DNA of 64,000 nucleotides from a virus, in IMG/VR virus record IMGVR_UViG_3300029422_000001, positions 46,744 through 110,743 of that record, one strand, 5' to 3'. Positions 7,739 through 30,633 of this stretch are shown here, one piece after another (the first letter of the stretch is position 1; every line of letters begins with the position of its first letter). The position numbers were made by a program, and so were the translations under genes. The notes under the pieces are model-generated. The model searched no databases and had not been told where the DNA came from. It worked only from the letters and a program-made list of their open reading frames with translations.

Positions 7739-8968
7739 TATCATAAAGCTGATAAGATAATGATCAAAGGTTACAAATATAGATTAGATCCTACACCGGA
7801 ACAGATTGTCCAAATGGAGAAAACATTTGGCTGTTGTAGGTATGTCTATAATTGGGCTCTTGATCTTAAAATCAAAACTTATCAGGGTGAAAAACGATCT
7901 TTGTCAGCGGTTGATTTATGCAAGCAGCTAACGTTACTCAAAAAAGATGATAACCATCTTTGGCTAAATGAAGTATCTAATGAATGCTTGCAACAATCTA
8001 TCCGCTGTATGGATAGCGCTTTCACCAAATTCTTTAGAGAACATGCTGGTTTCCCAAAATTCAAATCCAAACATAGGGGCAAGAACGTTTTTAAGAACGT
8101 AAACTCTGTTAAGTTTGATTTTGAAAACAACAGAGTTAAGATTCCTATCATTGGTTGGGTAAAGTTCTTTGCCAATCGGTCTTTTGAAGGAAAGATTGGT
8201 ACGATAACAATATCCAAATCATCAACTGGTAAGTTCTATGCAAGTATCTTAATAGATGACGGAATCCCTAATCCTGACAAGTTTGTTATCAATCCCGATA
8301 CGACAGTGGGAATTGATGTAGGGATCAAGGATTTCGCCGTCCTTTCCAACGGCCAGGTTTTTAGTAATCCGAAGTATTTTGAATCTGCGCAGAAAAGATT
8401 AGGATGCTTGCAAAGAAGAATGTCTCGTAAAAAGAAGGGAAGCAACCGATACAAGAAGGCAAAGCATGATGTTGCTGTTTGTCATGAACGGATTCGAAAT
8501 TGTAGACAAGATTTCTTACATAAGGTTAGTAAGAGGATAGTAAGTGAGAACCAAACTATTATCATCGAAGATCTTAATGTAGGAGGTATGTTGAAAAATC
8601 ATTGCCTTGCTAAAGGGATTGCTTCTGCATCATGGAGCGAGTTCTTTAGGATGTTGCAATATAAATCGGATTGGCGCGGTGTTAATTTAATTCGGATTGG
8701 AAGATTCGAGCCGAGTTCTAAGATGTGCGGATGTGGGTATATCCATCGTGATCTGAAGTTATCGGATCGTGTATGGACTTGTCCTGAATGTGGTGCCGTC
8801 AATGATCGTGATTTACTTGCAGCTAATAATATTAAAAAGTTTGGGTTAGAAAAACAGAATCTTCTACCCCAAGAAAATATTAACAAGACACCGGTGGTGA
8901 ACCGGGAAGGGGACGTGGAGTTGCCTACGTTGGTAGGAACGGTGAAGCGTCAAAATGTACTGGTGTAA
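7736..8968 (+). CDS. tnpB: TnpB, IS200/IS605-family RNA-guided endonuclease (OrfB); no TnpA partner
   Basis: N-terminal KGYKYRLDPTPEQ motif. RuvC-I TVGIDVGIKDFAVLS, RuvC-II IIIEDLNVGGM and a CxxC...CxxC zinc finger (CGCGY...CPECG). RuvC-III NDRDLLAANNI. The track start is TTG; a likely ATG lies at 7760 (MIKGYKYRL). Confidence 0.85.
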   Translation: MYHKADKIMIKGYKYRLDPTPEQIVQMEKTFGCCRYVYNWALDLKIKTYQGEKRSLSAVDLCKQLTLLKKDDNHLWLNEVSNECLQQSIRCMDSAFTKFFREHAGFPKFKSKHRGKNVFKNVNSVKFDFENNRVKIPIIGWVKFFANRSFEGKIGTITISKSSTGKFYASILIDDGIPNPDKFVINPDTTVGIDVGIKDFAVLSNGQVFSNPKYFESAQKRLGCLQRRMSRKKKGSNRYKKAKHDVAVCHERIRNCRQDFLHKVSKRIVSENQTIIIEDLNVGGMLKNHCLAKGIASASWSEFFRMLQYKSDWRGVNLIRIGRFEPSSKMCGCGYIHRDLKLSDRVWTCPECGAVNDRDLLAANNIKKFGLEKQNLLPQENINKTPVVNREGDVELPTLVGTVKRQNVLV

Positions 8969-9205
8969 ACTGGCATTTAATCACCTCCTATATTTATAAT
9001 CTGATACAAAATCAAACCGGATTAAGTATCAGAACTATATCCCATGTCTTGAATCACACAAAAGAACAGGATACAGATTCTTTGTGAAAGGCATACATTT
9101 TCCTATATTTGTGTGTTCTTTAGTTTTTAGATTTAAGTTTTTCATGGTATTAGTTTAGATTAGTGTAGATCAGGGCTCGCAGTGATGCGGGCCCTGGTTT
9201 GATTT
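8850..9205 (+). ncRNA. Candidate TnpB omegaRNA (reRNA) and IS right end. Contains a GNRA-capped hairpin 9171-9196 (cagggcucgca-GUGA-ugcgggcccug) plus U-run.
   Basis: Established architecture places the omegaRNA over the 3' end of tnpB and about 100-250 nt downstream. The hairpin and U-tract were read directly. Boundaries are not determinable without homologs. Confidence 0.3.
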
Positions 9206-9374
9206 AAAAAGTATTAAAATATTTGCTATTTAAAATCCTGTTCCTGTCTTTGCTCCAGAAACAATGAACAACGAGATCCCACCTCTGGTTGTTTGATGTT
9301 GAAAGATATTTTTGGCTCATTAGGGTTTGTCATAGTGGGATCTGACATTCTCTTTTGGGCCTATTTTTTTTATC

Positions 9375-9941
9375 ATGGATAAAGTTTCTGTTTTTGAAAG
9401 TTCGGATTTTGGAGAGCTTAGAATTATTGTAGATCCAAAAGGAGATGTTTGGTTTGTGGCGTCAGATGTGGCTAAATCTCTTGGATATATAAATGCTAAA
9501 GATGCGGTAAAAAGACATGTAGATGATGATGATTCTATGCTTTTGCAAGTATCTGATAATCAATGGGGCGTAAAACGATCTATATTGAAAACCAGATATA
9601 TAGATAGTATAAGAATAATTAATGAATCTGGTTTATATTCTCTTATATTATCTTCAAAATTAGAGTCTGCTAAGAGATTTAAGAAATGGGTAACATCTGA
9701 GGTTCTTCCTTCTATTCGTAAAACAGGAGAATATAAAACAAGTTCCGGTGGAAAGGGAATTTTGGTCCCTGACTTTTCTAATCCGGCAGATGCAGCAAGA
9801 GCCTGGGCTGATCAGTATGAAGCTGCTCAGAGAGCTATAGCTGAAAAATCTCAGGCAGAGGCAGAAGCCGGCGTTCTGATGGGACGTACATGGGGTACGG
9901 TGGTGGTATTTACGACCATTACGGTATGCATGAGAAGATGA
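9375..9941 (+). CDS. Bro-N (BRO/antirepressor N-terminal) domain protein
   Basis: FESSDFGELRIIVDPKGDVWFVASDVAKSLGY matches the Bro-N signature (F..IR....G..WF.a.DVa..LG). Confidence 0.7.
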   Translation: MDKVSVFESSDFGELRIIVDPKGDVWFVASDVAKSLGYINAKDAVKRHVDDDDSMLLQVSDNQWGVKRSILKTRYIDSIRIINESGLYSLILSSKLESAKRFKKWVTSEVLPSIRKTGEYKTSSGGKGILVPDFSNPADAARAWADQYEAAQRAIAEKSQAEAEAGVLMGRTWGTVVVFTTITVCMRR

Positions 9942-10147
9942 AGGAAATGGAAGAGCGAGAAAACGAGCTGGAAGAAAGGGAAAGAAGGCTCGAAGAGCGC
10001 GAACGTCGTCATGAAATGGAAGACCGGGAATACCGGAGGATGGGTTACGAATCCTATCCGACCGATTACTATGGAGACGACAGATACTACGGTGACGGAC
10101 CTCAGATGCGTAGAGGTCGCGGACGTGGCAGAGGTCGTTCTTATTGA
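9890..10147 (+). CDS. RE-rich / RGRGRGRGR-tailed ORF overlapping the Bro-N 3' end in the +2 frame. Possible frameshift-fused C-terminus.
   Basis: EERENELEERERRLEERERRHEMEDREYRR coiled-coil-like region and C-terminal RGRGRGRGRSY. Open in the +2 frame from a TGA at about 9820. Confidence 0.35.
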   Translation: MGYGGGIYDHYGMHEKMKEMEERENELEERERRLEERERRHEMEDREYRRMGYESYPTDYYGDDRYYGDGPQMRRGRGRGRGRSY

Positions 10148-10240
10148 GGAGCAGACGCAGAGGATCCAGCTTATCAGAAATATGTAGATACTTACGGCTA
10201 CCATTTTTCTAATGCTCTCGCTGATGAGGCGGTAAAGAAG

Positions 10241-10534
10241 ATGGTCAACGTCGATGGATCCAAGAGGATCTGGAAGCAGCCGGAAATAAAAGATATTTTT
10301 GAAAAGTGCGGAGCGAAGAAGCCGGATAAAGCGACATGGGGCGATGTCCAATATGTCTTTGCAATGTACTATTCGGATGGTTTTCCGAAGGTCTTCAAAT
10401 GTGAGAACGAGTTGGTGAAAGCTACGTTAATGTATTTGGATGATCCGGATGCTCCCGAAGGAGTAGCCTTTATAAGATGGCTTGCCGTGCAAGATTACCT
10501 CGGCGAAAAAATAAACTGGAAGGATCTGACCTGA
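10241..10534 (+). CDS. Hypothetical protein (97 aa)
   Basis: ORF with protein-like composition. Confidence 0.5.
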   Translation: MVNVDGSKRIWKQPEIKDIFEKCGAKKPDKATWGDVQYVFAMYYSDGFPKVFKCENELVKATLMYLDDPDAPEGVAFIRWLAVQDYLGEKINWKDLT

Positions 10535-10638
10535 GATCCAGACCCAGGTCCTTCCGGTGGTGCGGGAGCCATAGTAAAAAATATGATTCCCGCATTCCCG
10601 TTTTTCCCGTTTGGAAAAAAAAGAATAAAAATGTTATA

Positions 10639-10680
10639 CCGGTCGGCGGGCAATAGAATACCCGTGGCCGGTTTGTTTCA
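10639..10680 (+). terminator. GC-rich hairpin ccggtcggcggg-N10-cccgtggccgg plus TTTGTTT
   Basis: Stem with G-U wobbles read directly, about 100 nt after the stop at 10534. Confidence 0.45.
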
Positions 10681-10698
10681 CATAACTTTTTTTTTGAC

Positions 10699-10875
10699 AT
10701 GAATATAGCACACGAATCTAAATCGAATAAAACCCCATTGTATTTAATAGGAGAGTTGATTGGCGTACCGAATACGGTTATGGACTCAGCATTGCATGAA
10801 CTGAAAGATAGAATAGACAAAGACCCTAAATATAAAGATGTTAAAAATTGGCTCGAATCTTTACCCAAGATCTGA
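10699..10875 (+). CDS. Small unlisted ORF (58 aa): MNIAHESKSNKTPLYLIGELIGVPNTVMDSALHELKDRIDKDPKYKDVKNWLESLPKI
   Basis: Translated by hand; it falls below the ORF-track cutoff. Immediately followed by its own hairpin terminator. Confidence 0.45.
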   Translation: MNIAHESKSNKTPLYLIGELIGVPNTVMDSALHELKDRIDKDPKYKDVKNWLESLPKI

Positions 10876-10898
10876 ACCTATTTTTTTTTCAATACCAG

Positions 10899-10934
10899 GC
10901 CCGATGCGATTTTAACGTATCGGGTTTTTATTTT
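10899..10934 (+). terminator. Hairpin gcccgat-N13-atcgggt plus TTTTTATTTT
   Basis: Read directly. Classic intrinsic terminator shape. Confidence 0.5.
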
Positions 10935-10979
10935 AATTCATATTGTTTTATTTTAAATCTAATTAATTCGTGAATGTCG

Positions 10980-10987
10980 TACTTTTG
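10980..10987 (+). promoter_or_regulatory. TACTTTTG -7 box candidate upstream of the IscB omegaRNA/iscB
   Basis: TAnnTTTG match about 270 nt upstream of the iscB ATG. Bacteroidota promoter consensus. Confidence 0.3.
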
Positions 10988-10989
10988 TT

Positions 10990-11257
10990 GAAAAAGTATT
11001 TTTTATGGAAAATAAGGAAGATTACGTTGGTTACGAAGATCAAGAACTGTGTAACCGGTATTACAAAGAGGCTGAAGCCATGAGGCAAAAGCAGGACTGG
11101 TCTCGGCTTAGGGCTGTCCCTGCTCCGGCTAAGGGAACGCCATCGCCCGGCTGGGGTCAGCTTGGACGTGGAAATGATGTCCGTGTCAAGTATGTTAGCA
11201 TCAATTCAGGATTAATTCCTGACTTATGTTGAATAAACATTAAAAACGTTTGTAGAT
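10990..11257 (+). ncRNA. Candidate IscB omegaRNA (guide + scaffold), directly upstream of iscB
   Basis: Locally GC-rich (gggctgtccctgctccggctaagggaacgccatcgcccggctggggtcagcttggacgtgg) within an AT-rich genome. Small hairpins present (ggg-ctgt-ccc; ggac-N11-gtcc). IscB omegaRNAs are encoded immediately 5' of iscB. The 75-aa ORF 11005..11232 lies inside it and is probably not real. Confidence 0.4.
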
Positions 11258-12478
11258 ATGGTGTACGTACAAGACATAAATGGTAAACCTATGATGCCAA
11301 CAACGAGGCATGGTAAGGTTAGGAGACTGCTTAAAGATAAAAAGGCAGTCGTTGTGAACCTATGTCCGTTTACCATCCGATTAACGTACGTCACATCTGA
11401 TTACAAACAGGAAATTGTGTTAGGCGTTGATGCTGGAACTAAGCATGTTGGTCTATCAGCTACAACGAAAAGCAAAGAACTTTACAGTAGTGAAGTGATC
11501 CTTAGAAATGATATCGTAGATCTTTTGTTTACCAGAAGGGAGCTACGAAGAGCAAGACGGAACAGGTTAAGATATAGAAAACTTCGTTTTAATAATAGAA
11601 TAAAAAGCAAGCGTCCAGGATGGACAGCACCTTCGGTGAAGTACAAAATAGACGCCCATATTCGTGTTATTGATAATGTTTTTTCTATACTGCCTGTATC
11701 TCGTATTGTTATTGAAGTAGCTCAATTCGATACTCAAAAGATTAAGAATCCTAATATATCGGGTAAAGAATATCAGGAAGGTGATCAACTTGGGTTTTGG
11801 AACACAAGGGAGTATGTTTTAGCAAGGGATGGGCATAAATGTCAGTATTGTAAAGGAAAGTCAAAAGATAAGATCCTTAATGTTCATCATCTTGAATCCC
11901 GAAAAACGGGAGGTGATTCCCCTTCTAATCTTATTACCTTATGTGAAACTTGTCACAAAGAATACCATAAAGGTAATATAGATTTGAAGATCAAACGGGG
12001 ATCGTCGCTCCGCGACGCGGCCGTAATGGGGATCATGAAATGGAAGTTGTATGAAGAACTGAGATCCAGATACGACAGAGTTTTTATGACGTTTGGTTAC
12101 ATTACGAAACATAATCGGATTAAATATGGGATTGAAAAATCCCATACATCCGACGCGTTTGTCATTTCTAAGAATATTAATGCGAAACGAATCGAACGTC
12201 AATATTTAAAACGTTTAATTCGTAGACATAATAGACAAATACATAAAATGAAAATTTTAAAAGGGGGGAAGAAGAAAAACAATCAAGCTCCTTTTGAGGT
12301 TTTCGGTTTTAGGTTGTTTGATAAAGTGTTGTATAACAATAAAATATTCTTTGTTTATGGAAGGAGAAAATCAGGGAGTTTCAATATCAGGGATTTCAAC
12401 GGAGAAAATTCAAAAGATGTTTCACGCAAAAAGTTTAAACTCATTAGAGGGAAGAGGCATCCGATTATATTAAAGTAA
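11258..12478 (+). CDS. iscB: IscB, OMEGA RNA-guided HNH/RuvC nuclease (Cas9 ancestor family), 406 aa
   Basis: N-terminal PLMP domain (GKPMMPTTRHGKVRRLLK). RuvC-I GVDAGTKHVGLSAT and Arg-rich bridge helix RRELRRARRNRLRYRKLRF. HNH DGHKCQYC...NVHHL...NLITLCETCHKEYH and RuvC-III SHTSDAFVIS. Domain order and spacing match characterised IscBs. Confidence 0.85.
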   Translation: MVYVQDINGKPMMPTTRHGKVRRLLKDKKAVVVNLCPFTIRLTYVTSDYKQEIVLGVDAGTKHVGLSATTKSKELYSSEVILRNDIVDLLFTRRELRRARRNRLRYRKLRFNNRIKSKRPGWTAPSVKYKIDAHIRVIDNVFSILPVSRIVIEVAQFDTQKIKNPNISGKEYQEGDQLGFWNTREYVLARDGHKCQYCKGKSKDKILNVHHLESRKTGGDSPSNLITLCETCHKEYHKGNIDLKIKRGSSLRDAAVMGIMKWKLYEELRSRYDRVFMTFGYITKHNRIKYGIEKSHTSDAFVISKNINAKRIERQYLKRLIRRHNRQIHKMKILKGGKKKNNQAPFEVFGFRLFDKVLYNNKIFFVYGRRKSGSFNIRDFNGENSKDVSRKKFKLIRGKRHPIILK

Positions 12479-12515
12479 ATGAACAGATTTAATAAATTTA
12501 ATAGAAAAACGTATC

Positions 12516-12821
12516 ATGTATAATAAAGAAATAGTAATATGCGCGGCCATCTGGGTGCAGGACGACAAGAAACGTCCCTATCAGCCCACCAATATACCAT
12601 CCGGCACCGTGTTCTGTGGATTGAGACACCCCTCTATACTATCTCAACTTGCGGCATACGGTATAGCCCATAAAAACCGCAGTGTTCAAGGATTTTTGAC
12701 AAGCAAGAATCGGTTTCTAACAAGAGAGGAGGCATCTGAACTTGTTAAGAGCAATAATCAGGAAATGGTAGTAGATAGGAGTGCCATTAGAGAACAATTG
12801 TATTCAGAAGATCTATATTAA
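12516..12821 (+). CDS. Hypothetical protein (101 aa)
   Basis: ORF downstream of iscB. Cargo, phage moron or IS-flank gene. Confidence 0.45.
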   Translation: MYNKEIVICAAIWVQDDKKRPYQPTNIPSGTVFCGLRHPSILSQLAAYGIAHKNRSVQGFLTSKNRFLTREEASELVKSNNQEMVVDRSAIREQLYSEDLY

Positions 12822-12838
12822 CTAAAAAACAAAACAAC

Positions 12839-13192
12839 ATGGGGTTTAAAATCAAAAAGTCAATCACTTATGATATGATGGACGACAGTCGGGTAGAGTA
12901 CGAATTTGATAATACCAATGATTTAAATCATATCATATTTAAAGGTAATTGTAGAGAACCTTTTTCATTTAGCAGAGTACTTGTTGAAGAATTAATTAAG
13001 ACATTTGAAACCATACGGGATAGATACTCTGATAATTATGAACTTAAGGTCTATCTTTACAATTGTATAATTCAACTGAGCGTAAATCCAAAGGACCCCA
13101 GTGAATCCTTTTTTGGCGTATATGATAGAGATGAGATGAAATTGATATATAGTATAAAAAATAGTATCTTGAAAGGAATGTTTGGCATATGA
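12839..13192 (+). CDS. Hypothetical protein (117 aa)
   Basis: ORF abutting the next ORF (4-nt overlap). Confidence 0.5.
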   Translation: MGFKIKKSITYDMMDDSRVEYEFDNTNDLNHIIFKGNCREPFSFSRVLVEELIKTFETIRDRYSDNYELKVYLYNCIIQLSVNPKDPSESFFGVYDRDEMKLIYSIKNSILKGMFGI

Positions 13193-13500
13193 TTACTAAA
13201 CAAGATATACAAGCAGCAGCATCGTATATTTTCCGAAGCAGTTTTGTCTCGGAGGACCGGGCAAGGAAAGCAATGGTAAGAGCCGGCAATAACGCTACCA
13301 AGATCCTCGTCAAGACCTTTAGAGGCAAGTTGTTCAATAAAGCTTTTGAAAGAGCCCGTAGAGGAAAGGATATCAGCTCTTTTGAAAGACAGGAAAAAGA
13401 AAGTGGTTTCAATTTTCTACATAATCCTAATAATGGTCGTATGCAAAGCGGTCATGTCAAAATAGATGAAATTGGACTATTTAAACAAATAATAGAGTAG
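13189..13500 (+). CDS. Hypothetical basic protein (103 aa)
   Basis: ATGA start/stop overlap with the preceding ORF. Confidence 0.5.
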   Translation: MITKQDIQAAASYIFRSSFVSEDRARKAMVRAGNNATKILVKTFRGKLFNKAFERARRGKDISSFERQEKESGFNFLHNPNNGRMQSGHVKIDEIGLFKQIIE

Positions 13501-13538
13501 GGTACGTAAGTTATCCGACTTTTTCATATATTTGTGGC

Positions 13539-13862
13539 ATGGCAAGAGGTTATTATTGGATACCACAAACAGATGAAACGTTAAATGGCAGAAGCTATTA
13601 CGTGGCTAAGATAGTAGGAGATATCACGTTTGATACTAAACGAAAAAGAATCGTATTTCAAGCTGATAGGTATTTCCCTGTAGGATCTGTTTTCCATTTT
13701 ACGCACAATTGCTTTAACTATATCATAACTTGCCGACTTCGTAAGCCGGGGCTTTGGTTTGAAGCCAGGAGAGAAGATTCAGGCTCTATTTGTCCTGAAG
13801 ATATTGAGCGCTTTGAATCGGGAAGGTTTATTCACCGAGATGGGTACATGCATTACATATAA
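13539..13862 (+). CDS. Hypothetical protein (107 aa)
   Basis: ORF followed by the hairpin tgacga-ttttt-cgtca and a T-run at about 13880-13910. Confidence 0.5.
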   Translation: MARGYYWIPQTDETLNGRSYYVAKIVGDITFDTKRKRIVFQADRYFPVGSVFHFTHNCFNYIITCRLRKPGLWFEARREDSGSICPEDIERFESGRFIHRDGYMHYI

Positions 13863-13972
13863 GCTGAACTTGACGATTTTTCGTCAGATTATAATTTTTT
13901 TTCATATTATTTTAAGCCATCAGACTGAGAAGTTAGGTGGCTTTATTTTTTATGATATGCTTGATTTTTAAC

Positions 13973-13980
13973 TACCTTTG
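13973..13980 (+). promoter_or_regulatory. TACCTTTG -7 box 24 nt upstream of the 2140-aa gene
   Basis: TAnnTTTG consensus match read directly. Confidence 0.35.
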
Positions 13981-14003
13981 TCTCATAACAAAAATGTTTT
14001 ACT

Positions 14004-17000
14004 ATGACATCAACGTGTATTATTAAAAGAGATAATAAAAAGAAAGTTGTTTCTGTCTCTACCAGATCAGGGGACAGGTCTATGTTGTTTGATAAAATAG
14101 CATCTATTCCTCTTATGGAGAACAGAGAACGGGCTACTACTGTTTTTAAAACCGTATTTTCTAATAAGTTCTTAAAGGCTTTTGGCGACTGGAGAAAGAG
14201 AGTGCCTATCAACAAACCGGCTTATAATAAGGTAAAATCCAACATCGATCTTATTCCGGAAGCCTATAGAGAAAGGGTGCTGGATAAGGCTTCTAAGATG
14301 AGTAACCCTGTTCTTGTGTCAAAATCAGATGCACCTTATGAAATCCAAGAATCGGGCTTTGGATTCTACAGCCAAAATCTGGGTGATAATATTATGTTGG
14401 TGGATGTTATGGTTCCTTCAAGTATTTCCGTGCCGGAAGGACCTGGAATAGACGCCGGGCAGTATCTACAAGATGCTATATCTTCGGACTTCACTCCCGT
14501 ATCTATGGTACAGGATAAGGGTGTTAATTATATGGTTATAAAAGACGGTCTTAAGATATTTAGCCCAGAAGAGTTACCACAGACAGATTCTAATCCTGTG
14601 GGTGTAACGTATCAGACCGGAGAGCCTCGTTTGTTTTTCATGAACGATCGTAGTCAATTATTTGAAGATTACGGAGAAGCTCTTCGCTCTGGCGGGAATG
14701 ATATTAGAATAGGATTCTTATCAGGCACCGTTCAAGAATCTGCCTGGGATGGCGTGGCAGGCATTACTTACAAAGCTGGAAAGTATGTTCTTAATAATCC
14801 CAAATCTTTTATACCGGTCATGACCGCTTCTGCTTCTACTTCTTTATCAACAAAAGGTGGTATAATTAACTACCTTATAAAGAAAGGTCTTTTGTCCGGA
14901 TCTAAGATATTCGATCCTGAAACAAGAAGCTATTATCTTACAGGAGAAGGTCATACAGGACAAATTAGACTTTTCAATTCAGCCTTATCATACACCGAGC
15001 TCCGTAATCATTTTGGTTCCGATGTTTCCATGAACGACCAAGGTATGATAACCATAAGCTCGTTGGATAACAGTAAGGTAACTATGAGACTCGCCACCGG
15101 AGGAACGGAAAGGATTAGTAGGGAACAGATAAAGAACGATCTTAAGTCAGGAAGATACAATGAATTGGACGCCAAGTACGATCATTTTGATGCGCTTGTA
15201 GTTTCATTCATATTAGAAGACAACGATCTTTATGCTGATACTAAAGCTAAGATCGTATCGGATTATAGCAGGCAGGAACGTGACCAACGAAATTCTATTG
15301 TCGAGATACTGAAAACGCTTGGAGTTAGTGTCATAGGTATGACCGACTATATAGAGAAGTATCAAACCAAATACGGGCATGAACCTTCTGCTAAGGCATT
15401 GGCTGATATTGCCAATAACGTAATAGCAGTTGGTGAAGATGCTACTTTATCTGATTTAGTAGAAGAAACAGCCCACTTCCTTGTAGAGGCATACAGAGAT
15501 CAGAATGCTGTTGAGGCTGTTCTGCAAGATGTAGAAGGTACGGAAGAGTGGAACCAATATGCAGGTCAGTATTATAATACATACGGTAAGGTATATGAAG
15601 GAGCTGAGCTTGATAATGCTGTTAGGAGAGAAATTCTTGGAAAGATCCTCGCCAGGGAGATGCAGACCGGCACAGCACAGGCGCCGGTAGAGCCCACCTC
15701 CTTCCTGGGGCGCGTCCGGCAGCTTCTCTCTGGAATCGTAAGCTGGCTTAAATCAGCTTTATCAACCCAAAGACAAGATTTGAATAACGTTATTAAAAAC
15801 ATTCGTGATCTTGCCATTACTGACATAGATAAAGGATTTGACACCTCTCTGTTAAAGGATAATGACTTTACATTATACTCCCTTTCTTCTATGAACAAGA
15901 ACAAGTTTCTTGAGTCTAAGATCAGATCACTAAGAAAAACATTAAGAGACTTACGTCAGATAAGCTCTGATAGGGCTGTAACTACGTCTATGACCCTTGC
16001 GCAGCTTAAGACCATAGAAGATAAGATAAATAAGGTAGAGACCGAAATAGACAAGAATGAGATGGCGGCTGCCATGAACAGCATGATCTCCACAGCCGAA
16101 GCTCAGGTCAGATACTTAAACAATGTCGTGAACACCATTCTTCATGGAGATACTAAAGACGGTAAGCTTCACTTCAATACCAATGATCGAAAGAACGTAG
16201 ATATTATCAACAATCAGGTTCTTCCGATCATGAACGATCTTCGAGGATATATCCGTAACAGAAGTACCGAATTTGATGAACGTGAAAAGCAGGATTATAC
16301 AAATAGGATCAATACCGTCATTGCCGACATTAATGGTATTCAATCTGATATTAAATCAGTACAAGACCTTGATGAAAGTACGTTGCTTGATAAGTTAATG
16401 AACGAACTTCATGTGCCGGCAGATAAGGTAAAGAGAGTAAAAGAATTTTTTGACAAAGTTCAACATGATGTCTCTTGGATAAGTAGGTGGTTTGGTATAT
16501 TAGAGCATTCTTCCAGTCCGTTCAATAACGCTCTTGGAGCTATGATTGCCAAAGACAATTACAATGCGATGGTGAATGCCCAGCCCGCCATATCCGACTT
16601 CCTGGCATATGCTAAAAAGCATGGTTTTAACAAATCTGAATTTGAAAAACTGCTTCAGAAAGTAGACGGCAAAACTTCTAATTACCTTCGTAGTGCTCTT
16701 GATATGGCTAAATACGATCGTAATAAGAAGCTGGCGCAGATGCGAGCGTTTGCGACTGCCATGAACATAGAGATATCAGAAGAAGAAATTGGTGATGTGG
16801 TTGACAATAACCGTAATTACGTATTTAAAAGAGAAGTAGTTGACAAGGATGGAAATACGGTTACTGAAAACGCTAAATTCAAACCATCGTCTGATAGAGT
16901 TAATACCGATATTTTTACCATCGAGCAGGAAAAGATTTATACAGAACAGATGGAAAAGTGGGATGCTGAAAATTCGGAACTGGAATTTAGCGAAAGTTAT

Positions 17001-29123: not shown

Positions 29124-29474
29124 TTATTTTATATCAGTAATTAAAACATATATTTTAGCAATATCTTCAAGACTCACAGAAGAACGTATATATAGTTTTT
29201 CTTCGTACTCATATAGAGCGTACCCTTCTTTTATGTCTAATATCTTAATCACATGCTTGCCTCTTTCAAATGGATCCTCAAAGTAGCTCTTATGTTCGTA
29301 TCTTTGACCTACTTTGATTTTGTCAGTTTTCTTCTTCATCTTATAACGCTCTACTGCTCTACCTGTTTTTATGAAAGCTGTCGTGAGTAAGTATAATAAA
29401 ACTAAATACAAAAGGATCGCTACTCCACATATTAGATCTTCTTTCATTACACTCCTTTTAAATAGTTGAACCAT
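29124..29474 (-). CDS. Hypothetical protein with N-terminal TM helix (116 aa)
   Basis: Hydrophobic CGVAILLYLVLLYLLTTAF segment. Confidence 0.5.
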   Translation of the reverse strand: MVQLFKRSVMKEDLICGVAILLYLVLLYLLTTAFIKTGRAVERYKMKKKTDKIKVGQRYEHKSYFEDPFERGKHVIKILDIKEGYALYEYEEKLYIRSSVSLEDIAKIYVLITDIK

Positions 29475-29613
29475 ATATCCTCCAGCTTCTCCTAAAGCTC
29501 AAACGCTTTCTTGAAATTCCCGCATTTTACAGCAACGTCTCTCATGTATTCTACGTTTATAACTTCCGGATCTTGCCGGTATTTCGTTCTTAACTTTTGA
29601 ACATCCTCGTATT

Positions 29614-30633
29614 TCATCGTTTTATCTTTTTAGACGGATCCCAATCTGAAGAGAAAGGGCATTCGTTTTTGTTATGTAATCCAAAGTCACAATAATAACA
29701 CAGCGCCGACGGGCAGGGTAGCTTGTTTTGCGAAACAGGCTGGCTTAGGGTGGCGCGCCGCTTGCTATACCTGGCTTCTTCTGCTCCCTGGATGTACGCT
29801 TGAAATGTTTTTACACTATTATCTTCAAAATCATACATTTTAGACAAAGTGTCATTTAGCATTTCTATAGATTTTGTTTTACGTTCTTCATCTACTTTAA
29901 CCTTTTGGTACTGCCTGGTTCTGGTAAAGAAATAGATGTTCATATCTGGCAGAACTCCACCATATTTTCTATAGATGTAAAACGAATATATAGGATGCTG
30001 TAAATTCGTTTCCAACTTCTTAGAGTCAAAAACCTTGTTTCCTGATTTCCAATCTATGACATAATGGTGAACTACGTTCTTGCTCTTTATAGCCAGATGA
30101 AGGTCTACCGATCCTACTATGTACACATGAGTATGAATTACTCCATTTATATCAACAGGCTTAGGAAGACGGTACGGCAGCACAAAATCTTCTTCGACTC
30201 CAACTATAGCGCCGTGTCTGATAAGTTTCTCACAGGGATTAAGATCACTATCAGCTATCATAAACCTATTCCCGTCTTTTTTAAACAGATCCACAATCCA
30301 AGCAAGAAGCTCCCCAGATTGTTTCATGGCTATCATCATATTTTCCGGTGATAGCCAAGGTATGTCTTCTTGGTAAGCATAGTAACTTATTGCTTCTCCA
30401 AGGTCTTTACCAGAAGGCTGTCTTCCGTTCTTAAAGAAGTATTCCAGTGTCTTATGGATAACCGTACCATAAGATGTAGCTTCTTGTTTTTCTGTAGACC
30501 TTTTGCCCTCTACGTAAGTTTTATACCATTTCATTGGACAGGTAAGAAACGTATCTATCTGGGAATAAGATATGGCAAGACGTTTCACACCATTAAACTC
30601 CTTATATAGCAAATGCGTTTCCGGGACCATCAT
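29614..30633 (-). CDS. Cas4/RecB-like PD-(D/E)XK nuclease with 4-Cys cluster (339 aa)
   Basis: N-terminal Cys (TCPMKWY), core GSVDLHLAI...IDWKSG (D...D-x-K), C-terminal CPSALCYYC...C triad. This is the Cas4/DUF83 architecture. Confidence 0.7.
   Translation of the reverse strand: MMVPETHLLYKEFNGVKRLAISYSQIDTFLTCPMKWYKTYVEGKRSTEKQEATSYGTVIHKTLEYFFKNGRQPSGKDLGEAISYYAYQEDIPWLSPENMMIAMKQSGELLAWIVDLFKKDGNRFMIADSDLNPCEKLIRHGAIVGVEEDFVLPYRLPKPVDINGVIHTHVYIVGSVDLHLAIKSKNVVHHYVIDWKSGNKVFDSKKLETNLQHPIYSFYIYRKYGGVLPDMNIYFFTRTRQYQKVKVDEERKTKSIEMLNDTLSKMYDFEDNSVKTFQAYIQGAEEARYSKRRATLSQPVSQNKLPCPSALCYYCDFGLHNKNECPFSSDWDPSKKIKR

Follow-up and report, generated by a model that had tools for sequence, protein, structure and literature searches.

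The IscB gene of the 64,000-nucleotide stretch of phage DNA analysed here (the window) lies in what is probably a recently disarmed, 5'-truncated copy of a non-autonomous IS200/IS605-type IscB element. The element copy spans positions 11215–12515 and is a truncated member of an already known, abundant family, which populates a clade of human-gut phages of roughly 140–160 kb. A complete copy consists of a guide derived from the flank, a HEARO scaffold of ~240 nt, a leader of ~50 nt (in which a hairpin covaries), iscB and a distal end of ~35 nt that runs up to an ATG. In the window, one deletion of ~316 nt would have removed the guide and the whole scaffold, so that the 3' end of a small phage gene (ORF75) now runs into what is left of the leader, its final 43 nt. 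The lone copy would then be unable to form an RNA-guided nuclease, and its intact reading frame would reflect how little time inactivating mutations have had to gather.

The 406-aa ORF itself (11258–12478, plus strand) is intact and encodes a true IscB with the full domain order and all catalytic residues. The NCBIfam equivalog NF040563 (guided_IscB, "RNA-guided endonuclease IscB") matches residues 2–303 with 348.6 bits (cutoff 175), Pfam assigns RRXRR (5.3e-57, residues 2–175) and HNH (5.8e-10), and a phmmer search of PDB sequences retrieves OgeuIscB-type chains with E-values of 1.8e-44 to 2.5e-43. The alignment with the PDB chains keeps the RuvC-I Asp (GxDxG), the RuvC-II Glu (IEV/LEL), the HNH His pair and the RuvC-III H..D. 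This bears out the proposal of an earlier, sequence-only note that the ORF is an IscB with complete domain order, and the motifs quoted there are all found at the expected positions, i.e., PLMP with GKPMMPTT at residue 9, RuvC-I with GVDAGTKHVG at 56 (D58), the bridge helix with RRELRRARRNRLRYRKLRF at 93, RuvC-II with IVIEVAQF at 150 (E153), HNH with CQYC at 195, NVHH at 208 (H210/H211) and SNLITLCETCH at 223, and RuvC-III with SHTSDAFV at 295 (H297, D300). A C-terminal region of ~100 aa follows, and residues ~334–406 lie beyond the range aligned by the HMM and PDB matches.

Domain order and catalytic residues are shared with OgeuIscB (PDB 7UTN/7XHT) and with GstIscB of ISGst5; however, the window protein is shorter than OgeuIscB (406 versus ~496 aa) and, unlike these IscBs of the IS200/IS605 family (ISC), it is phage-borne and has lost its omegaRNA and guide entirely. 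Free-standing phage HNH homing endonucleases of the T4 seg/mob type are likewise intergenic between small phage genes and polymorphic in presence or absence among related phages, but they recognize DNA by protein alone and have no RuvC, PLMP or omegaRNA, whereas the window protein belongs to the RNA-guided IscB family.

The omegaRNA of IscB corresponds to the Rfam family HEARO (RF02033; PMC13565253; Meers et al., bioRxiv 10.1101/2023.03.14.532601). The relatives considered here are 79 IMG/VR loci (numbered with the prefix L) that encode an IscB 79–97% identical to the window protein. Homology to the window IscB unit starts at 11214–11219 in every one of the 79 loci and ends at 12439–12519, most loci having unrelated flanks. 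The relatives share a conserved block of 225–300 nt directly 5' of the iscB ATG, which the window lacks, and HEARO is detected in all 18 distinct relatives scanned, with 90.9–113 bits (gathering score 83). Relative to the iscB ATG the match covers about −290 to −51, with its 3' end at −51 to −54. The omegaRNA core is present upstream of iscB in 77 of the 79 loci, the exceptions being L016 (see below) and L080, where the contig ends.

In an alignment of 16 omegaRNA sequences there are 55 consensus pairs, 10 of which show compensatory changes. The core is nearly identical across subfamilies, and the 5' stem covaries between at least two forms, ATATCCG…CGGATAT and TAATCG…CGATTA. Conservation halts exactly where the 5' stem begins, and the DNA further 5' varies with the insertion site; this variable DNA occupies the position expected for the guide. 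Like IS200/IS605 IscB elements, complete copies in the relatives carry a HEARO omegaRNA directly upstream of the gene, with the guide outside the element end.

In contrast to its relatives, the window contains no HEARO match at E ≤ 1 over the 64 kb, and the covariance-model search of the upstream region that the earlier note had proposed, run with Rfam HEARO on 10000–13000, came back empty at E ≤ 10. With the family omegaRNA profile, the best nhmmer match in the window had E = 3.4; searches with the family omegaRNA sequences by blastn (word size 7) and by nhmmer matched only a leader remnant of 39–43 nt. This remnant (11215–11257, plus strand, 43 nt), delimited by the start of family homology and by the end of HEARO in relatives, lies 3' of the region modelled by RF02033; nothing else of the omegaRNA region survives. 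A structured HEARO-type omegaRNA immediately 5' of iscB on the same strand is therefore absent from the window. So is a guide segment at an omegaRNA 5' end, as the deletion covers the start of the scaffold and what lay 5' of it; the guide that had been expected to reveal the target of the nuclease cannot be read from this copy. The sub-threshold Rfam matches in the window (trpB motif, miRNAs, FopS, S15 leader) are attributed to chance and none of them is HEARO. The weak trpB motif match is due to a strong terminator-like hairpin at 10897–10927 (plus strand; 12 bp, 6 GC, with a T-run), which is located after a small ORF at 10699–10875 and just 5' of ORF75.

The stretch at 10980–11257, which the earlier note had taken for the candidate omegaRNA of a complete OMEGA system, is no omegaRNA but an ordinary phage gene. 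ORF75 (11005–11232, plus strand, 75 codons) is a conserved small gene outside the IscB element. The closest phage in GenBank, csAssE-Sib (OR575929.1, 151 kb, human gut), has no IscB and yet is 97% identical to the window over 9853–11213, the whole candidate omegaRNA included; its counterpart of ORF75 is annotated as a 75-aa CDS (WOZ57313.1) and is near-identical up to 11213. Across 19 distinct homologs ORF75 has neither stops nor indels, and of its 34 variable columns, 24 are third codon positions (binomial P = 1e-5). No PHROGs family is matched by ORF75, and a literature search on csAssE-Sib found nothing. In syntenic relatives that bear IscB, 0.3–1.9 kb of other DNA lies between the ORF75 region and the IscB unit, their own HEARO adjoins iscB, and IscB copies at other genomic sites are never accompanied by the ORF75 stretch.

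The description of the upstream DNA as conspicuously GC-rich and hairpin-rich holds in part. The G+C content is 0.428 for 10980–11257 and 0.498 for 11005–11213, against 0.376 for the whole window, and the 341-nt stretch 10960–11300, which contains 10980–11257, folds better than shuffled sequence (z = −3.56). However, the enrichment is not extreme, since 13% of stretches of that length match or exceed it and the region 9700–10600 reaches 0.45–0.51. Folding, base composition and a position that is the usual place of IscB omegaRNAs are what speaks for a divergent, non-HEARO omegaRNA at 10980–11257, with which the locus would still be a complete OMEGA system. That reading is extremely improbable and may be regarded as already refuted, because the stretch has no Rfam match, is present in the IscB-less csAssE-Sib, lies apart from iscB in the relatives and evolves like coding sequence.

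The junction that separates ORF75 from the IscB leader is located at 11214/11215, where the alignment with csAssE-Sib diverges and as defined by comparison of the window with the flanks of L005, L013, L018 and L020. In relatives of the L005 type the order is ORF75, a truncated next gene, omegaRNA and iscB, and compared with such a relative a single deletion of ~316 nt accounts for the window. The deletion spans the final 19 nt of ORF75, the flank on the guide side and the omegaRNA scaffold in full; its left breakpoint follows …TTCAGGATTA (11214) and its right breakpoint precedes ATTCCTGA… (11215). In place of its last 6 codons, ORF75 now reads on into the IscB leader remnant, and the C-terminus, which is …SGLGGGIDY* in csAssE-Sib and the relatives, reads …SGLIPDLC* in the window. 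Because a native ORF75 C-terminus that is conserved elsewhere has been replaced, the state of the window is derived, and we infer a deletion rather than an ancestral absence of the omegaRNA. In the resulting arrangement iscB is probably co-transcribed with ORF75.

A 6-bp hairpin, TCAGGA-TTAAT-TCCTGA, spans the junction (11206–11222, plus strand), with its left arm derived from the ORF75 3' end and its right arm from the omegaRNA terminal hairpin. The counterpart of this hairpin in relatives covaries (CAGGA/TCCTG, CAGAG/CTCTG, CAGGG/CCCTG). The hexamer CAGGAT is found just 5' of the breakpoint in both parents; however, a simple microhomology deletion at CAGGAT predicts the loop GAAATA, whereas TAA is observed. 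A blunt join, two and five bases past the shared hexamer, is the best reading of the junction.

An assembly artefact is ruled out by an independently assembled ENA contig (L081), which is 99.995% identical to the window over 21 kb and carries the same junction; the junction is therefore real. The identical IscB protein occurs on six contigs of 50–200 kb, one of them being ENA ERZ27297370 k119_92872, and prevalence was judged from these six contigs alone. The exact junction has no match in IMG/VR or in JGI metagenome contigs, and the lineage is therefore rare. The same locus provides a second example of decay in L016 (IMGVR_UViG_3300045988_112464), in which an independent deletion joins the equivalent of window position ~7317 to IscB codon 20, and thereby took TnpB, the anti-repressor and ORF75 as well as the omegaRNA and 19 codons at the start of IscB.

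Pairwise dN/dS values of 0.06–0.16 place the IscB family under strong purifying selection. The window protein is 96–97% identical to copies with an omegaRNA, and compared with 68 full-length relatives the window ORF has one private nucleotide change, C272T, which leads to S91F at the start of the bridge helix. As this is the only private change, the deletion is recent.

The iscB-distal end of the window element (12479–12515, plus strand) is intact, in contrast to the deleted omegaRNA-side end. It abuts the ATG of the next gene at 12516, and family homology ends there, at 12509–12519. Alignment to relatives without the insertion, likewise suggested in the earlier note, brackets the IscB unit, as homology to csAssE-Sib stops at 11213 and resumes at 12513. 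In almost every distinct site (L002–L080) the distal end of ~35 nt is directly followed by an ATG, the sequences after it being ATGTAT, ATGAAA, ATGAAT, ATGTTG, ATGGCA and others. In transposon orientation the distal flank thus reads …CAT and often TTCAT (from ATGAA), the latter being equal to TTCAT, the TAM determined for GstIscB by Meers et al. (bioRxiv 10.1101/2023.03.14.532601), in whose work the TAM lies at the element end that does not carry the omegaRNA. This flank is consistent with IS605-type targeting. The genes called in the 10 kb to each side of IscB in the near-identical contig L081 include no member of the Y1_Tnp family, in agreement with the earlier note, which saw no TnpA alongside. 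Absence of TnpA is typical of non-autonomous IscB elements of the IS200/IS605 group (Meers et al., bioRxiv 10.1101/2023.03.14.532601), and the window family resembles them in this respect.

Two other insertion sites of the family, both on the minus strand (~41973–42118/42218 and ~29447–29616), lie within the window and are unoccupied. At both, a small ORF or part of one takes the place where relatives carry a complete omegaRNA–IscB element; instead of being simply inserted, the element therefore takes the place of DNA as far as the ATG of the next gene. Among the loci syntenic with 11214–12515 (L002–L023), the iscB-distal junction is constant and there are at least eight different omegaRNA-side junctions, each of which coincides with the first scaffold base, and hence different guides. 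Recombination between elements at neighbouring …CAT sites is a possible origin of these differing junctions. One locus, L025, contains two element copies 4.2 kb apart.

As to the surroundings of the gene, the claim that it is embedded in a virion-gene block is only loosely correct, in that a 2140-aa virion structural protein (phrog_37651, 2e-76) begins 1.5 kb downstream of IscB, but the immediate neighbours are small ORFs and an anti-repressor; upstream of IscB there are a Bro-N/Ant anti-repressor and small ORFs without known function. A second OMEGA-type gene, encoding a TnpB of 402 aa (7760–8968, plus strand; Pfam HTH_OrfB_IS605, OrfB_IS605 and Cas12f1-like_TNB; phrog_506, 7e-125), is present further upstream, and TnpA is absent near it as well. 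The omegaRNA of TnpB is expected at the 3' end of its gene. In a blastn comparison of window 8001–16000 with the csAssE-Sib region, 8000–8985, where TnpB lies, is unmatched and homology starts at 8986. In L015, four tandem tRNA genes (2552–2915) are located ~1.1 kb upstream of the IscB–omegaRNA element.

IscB has no REC lobe, and target selection relies on the omegaRNA scaffold (PMC13565253, section 5.3). For this reason the window copy alone would not constitute an RNA-guided nuclease and is probably non-functional unless an omegaRNA is provided in trans. Such provision could come from the other ~90 kb of the genome, through a second IscB–omegaRNA element or an omegaRNA on its own, or from a co-infecting related phage. 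It is the alternative that deserves most attention, since only 64 kb of a genome of ~150 kb is seen here, and a fully intact ORF in a family under strong purifying selection counts against a dead remnant. At least three related contigs carry two IscB–omegaRNA copies, one of them with the two within 9 kb, and the near-identity of the omegaRNA core across subfamilies makes cross-loading plausible; the protein, which keeps every catalytic residue, would then add to the dose of nuclease or would address whatever the trans guide specifies. However, the 64 kb contain neither HEARO nor a second IscB (tblastn), both further insertion sites of the family are empty, and there is no sign of selection since the deletion, the sole private change being non-synonymous. 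We therefore consider supply in trans rather unlikely. A more far-reaching version, in which omegaRNA-less IscBs are kept for the use of trans omegaRNAs and the IscB–HEARO family serves RNA-guided homing or marker exclusion between co-infecting gut phages, is speculative and would have to be given a low probability.

Domestication of the protein as a guide-independent HNH/RuvC nuclease that acts like a homing endonuclease, for which loss of the omegaRNA would be immaterial, is very unlikely. The grouping of the protein with phage 'HNH endonucleases' in PHROGs and the intact ORF would agree with it, as would the frequent occurrence in phages of free-standing homing endonucleases (PMC13565253, section 3.2). 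Yet with such high identity to omegaRNA-bearing copies and a single private substitution there is neither time nor signal for neofunctionalization, and the omegaRNA-less state is rare, with two of 79 loci (L016, and L080 by reason of its contig end) and a junction not seen in IMG/VR or JGI metagenomes; the dependence of IscB on the scaffold for target selection also argues against it. A recently disarmed remnant thus remains the probable identity of the window copy.

For this phage, a false lead is removed, as the window holds no readable guide and no complete programmable nuclease, and the supposed scaffold is a phage gene. The copy offers a natural example of the decay of an IscB element, in which the omegaRNA goes first while the ORF is still intact, and it warns that OMEGA systems should not be called from the protein alone. 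If omegaRNA-less copies were kept for trans omegaRNAs in a homing population, this would account for the fact that elements take the place of small ORFs and stop exactly at the following start codon, and the window copy would be a 'guide-free' participant and no dead remnant. Compact IscBs (406 aa) with their cognate omegaRNAs could be mined from the relatives and not from the window copy. The family data, in turn, reveal a large, multi-site and actively polymorphic IscB–HEARO population in ~150-kb human-gut phages, with defined ends and empty sites, which could serve the study of RNA-guided homing between phages.
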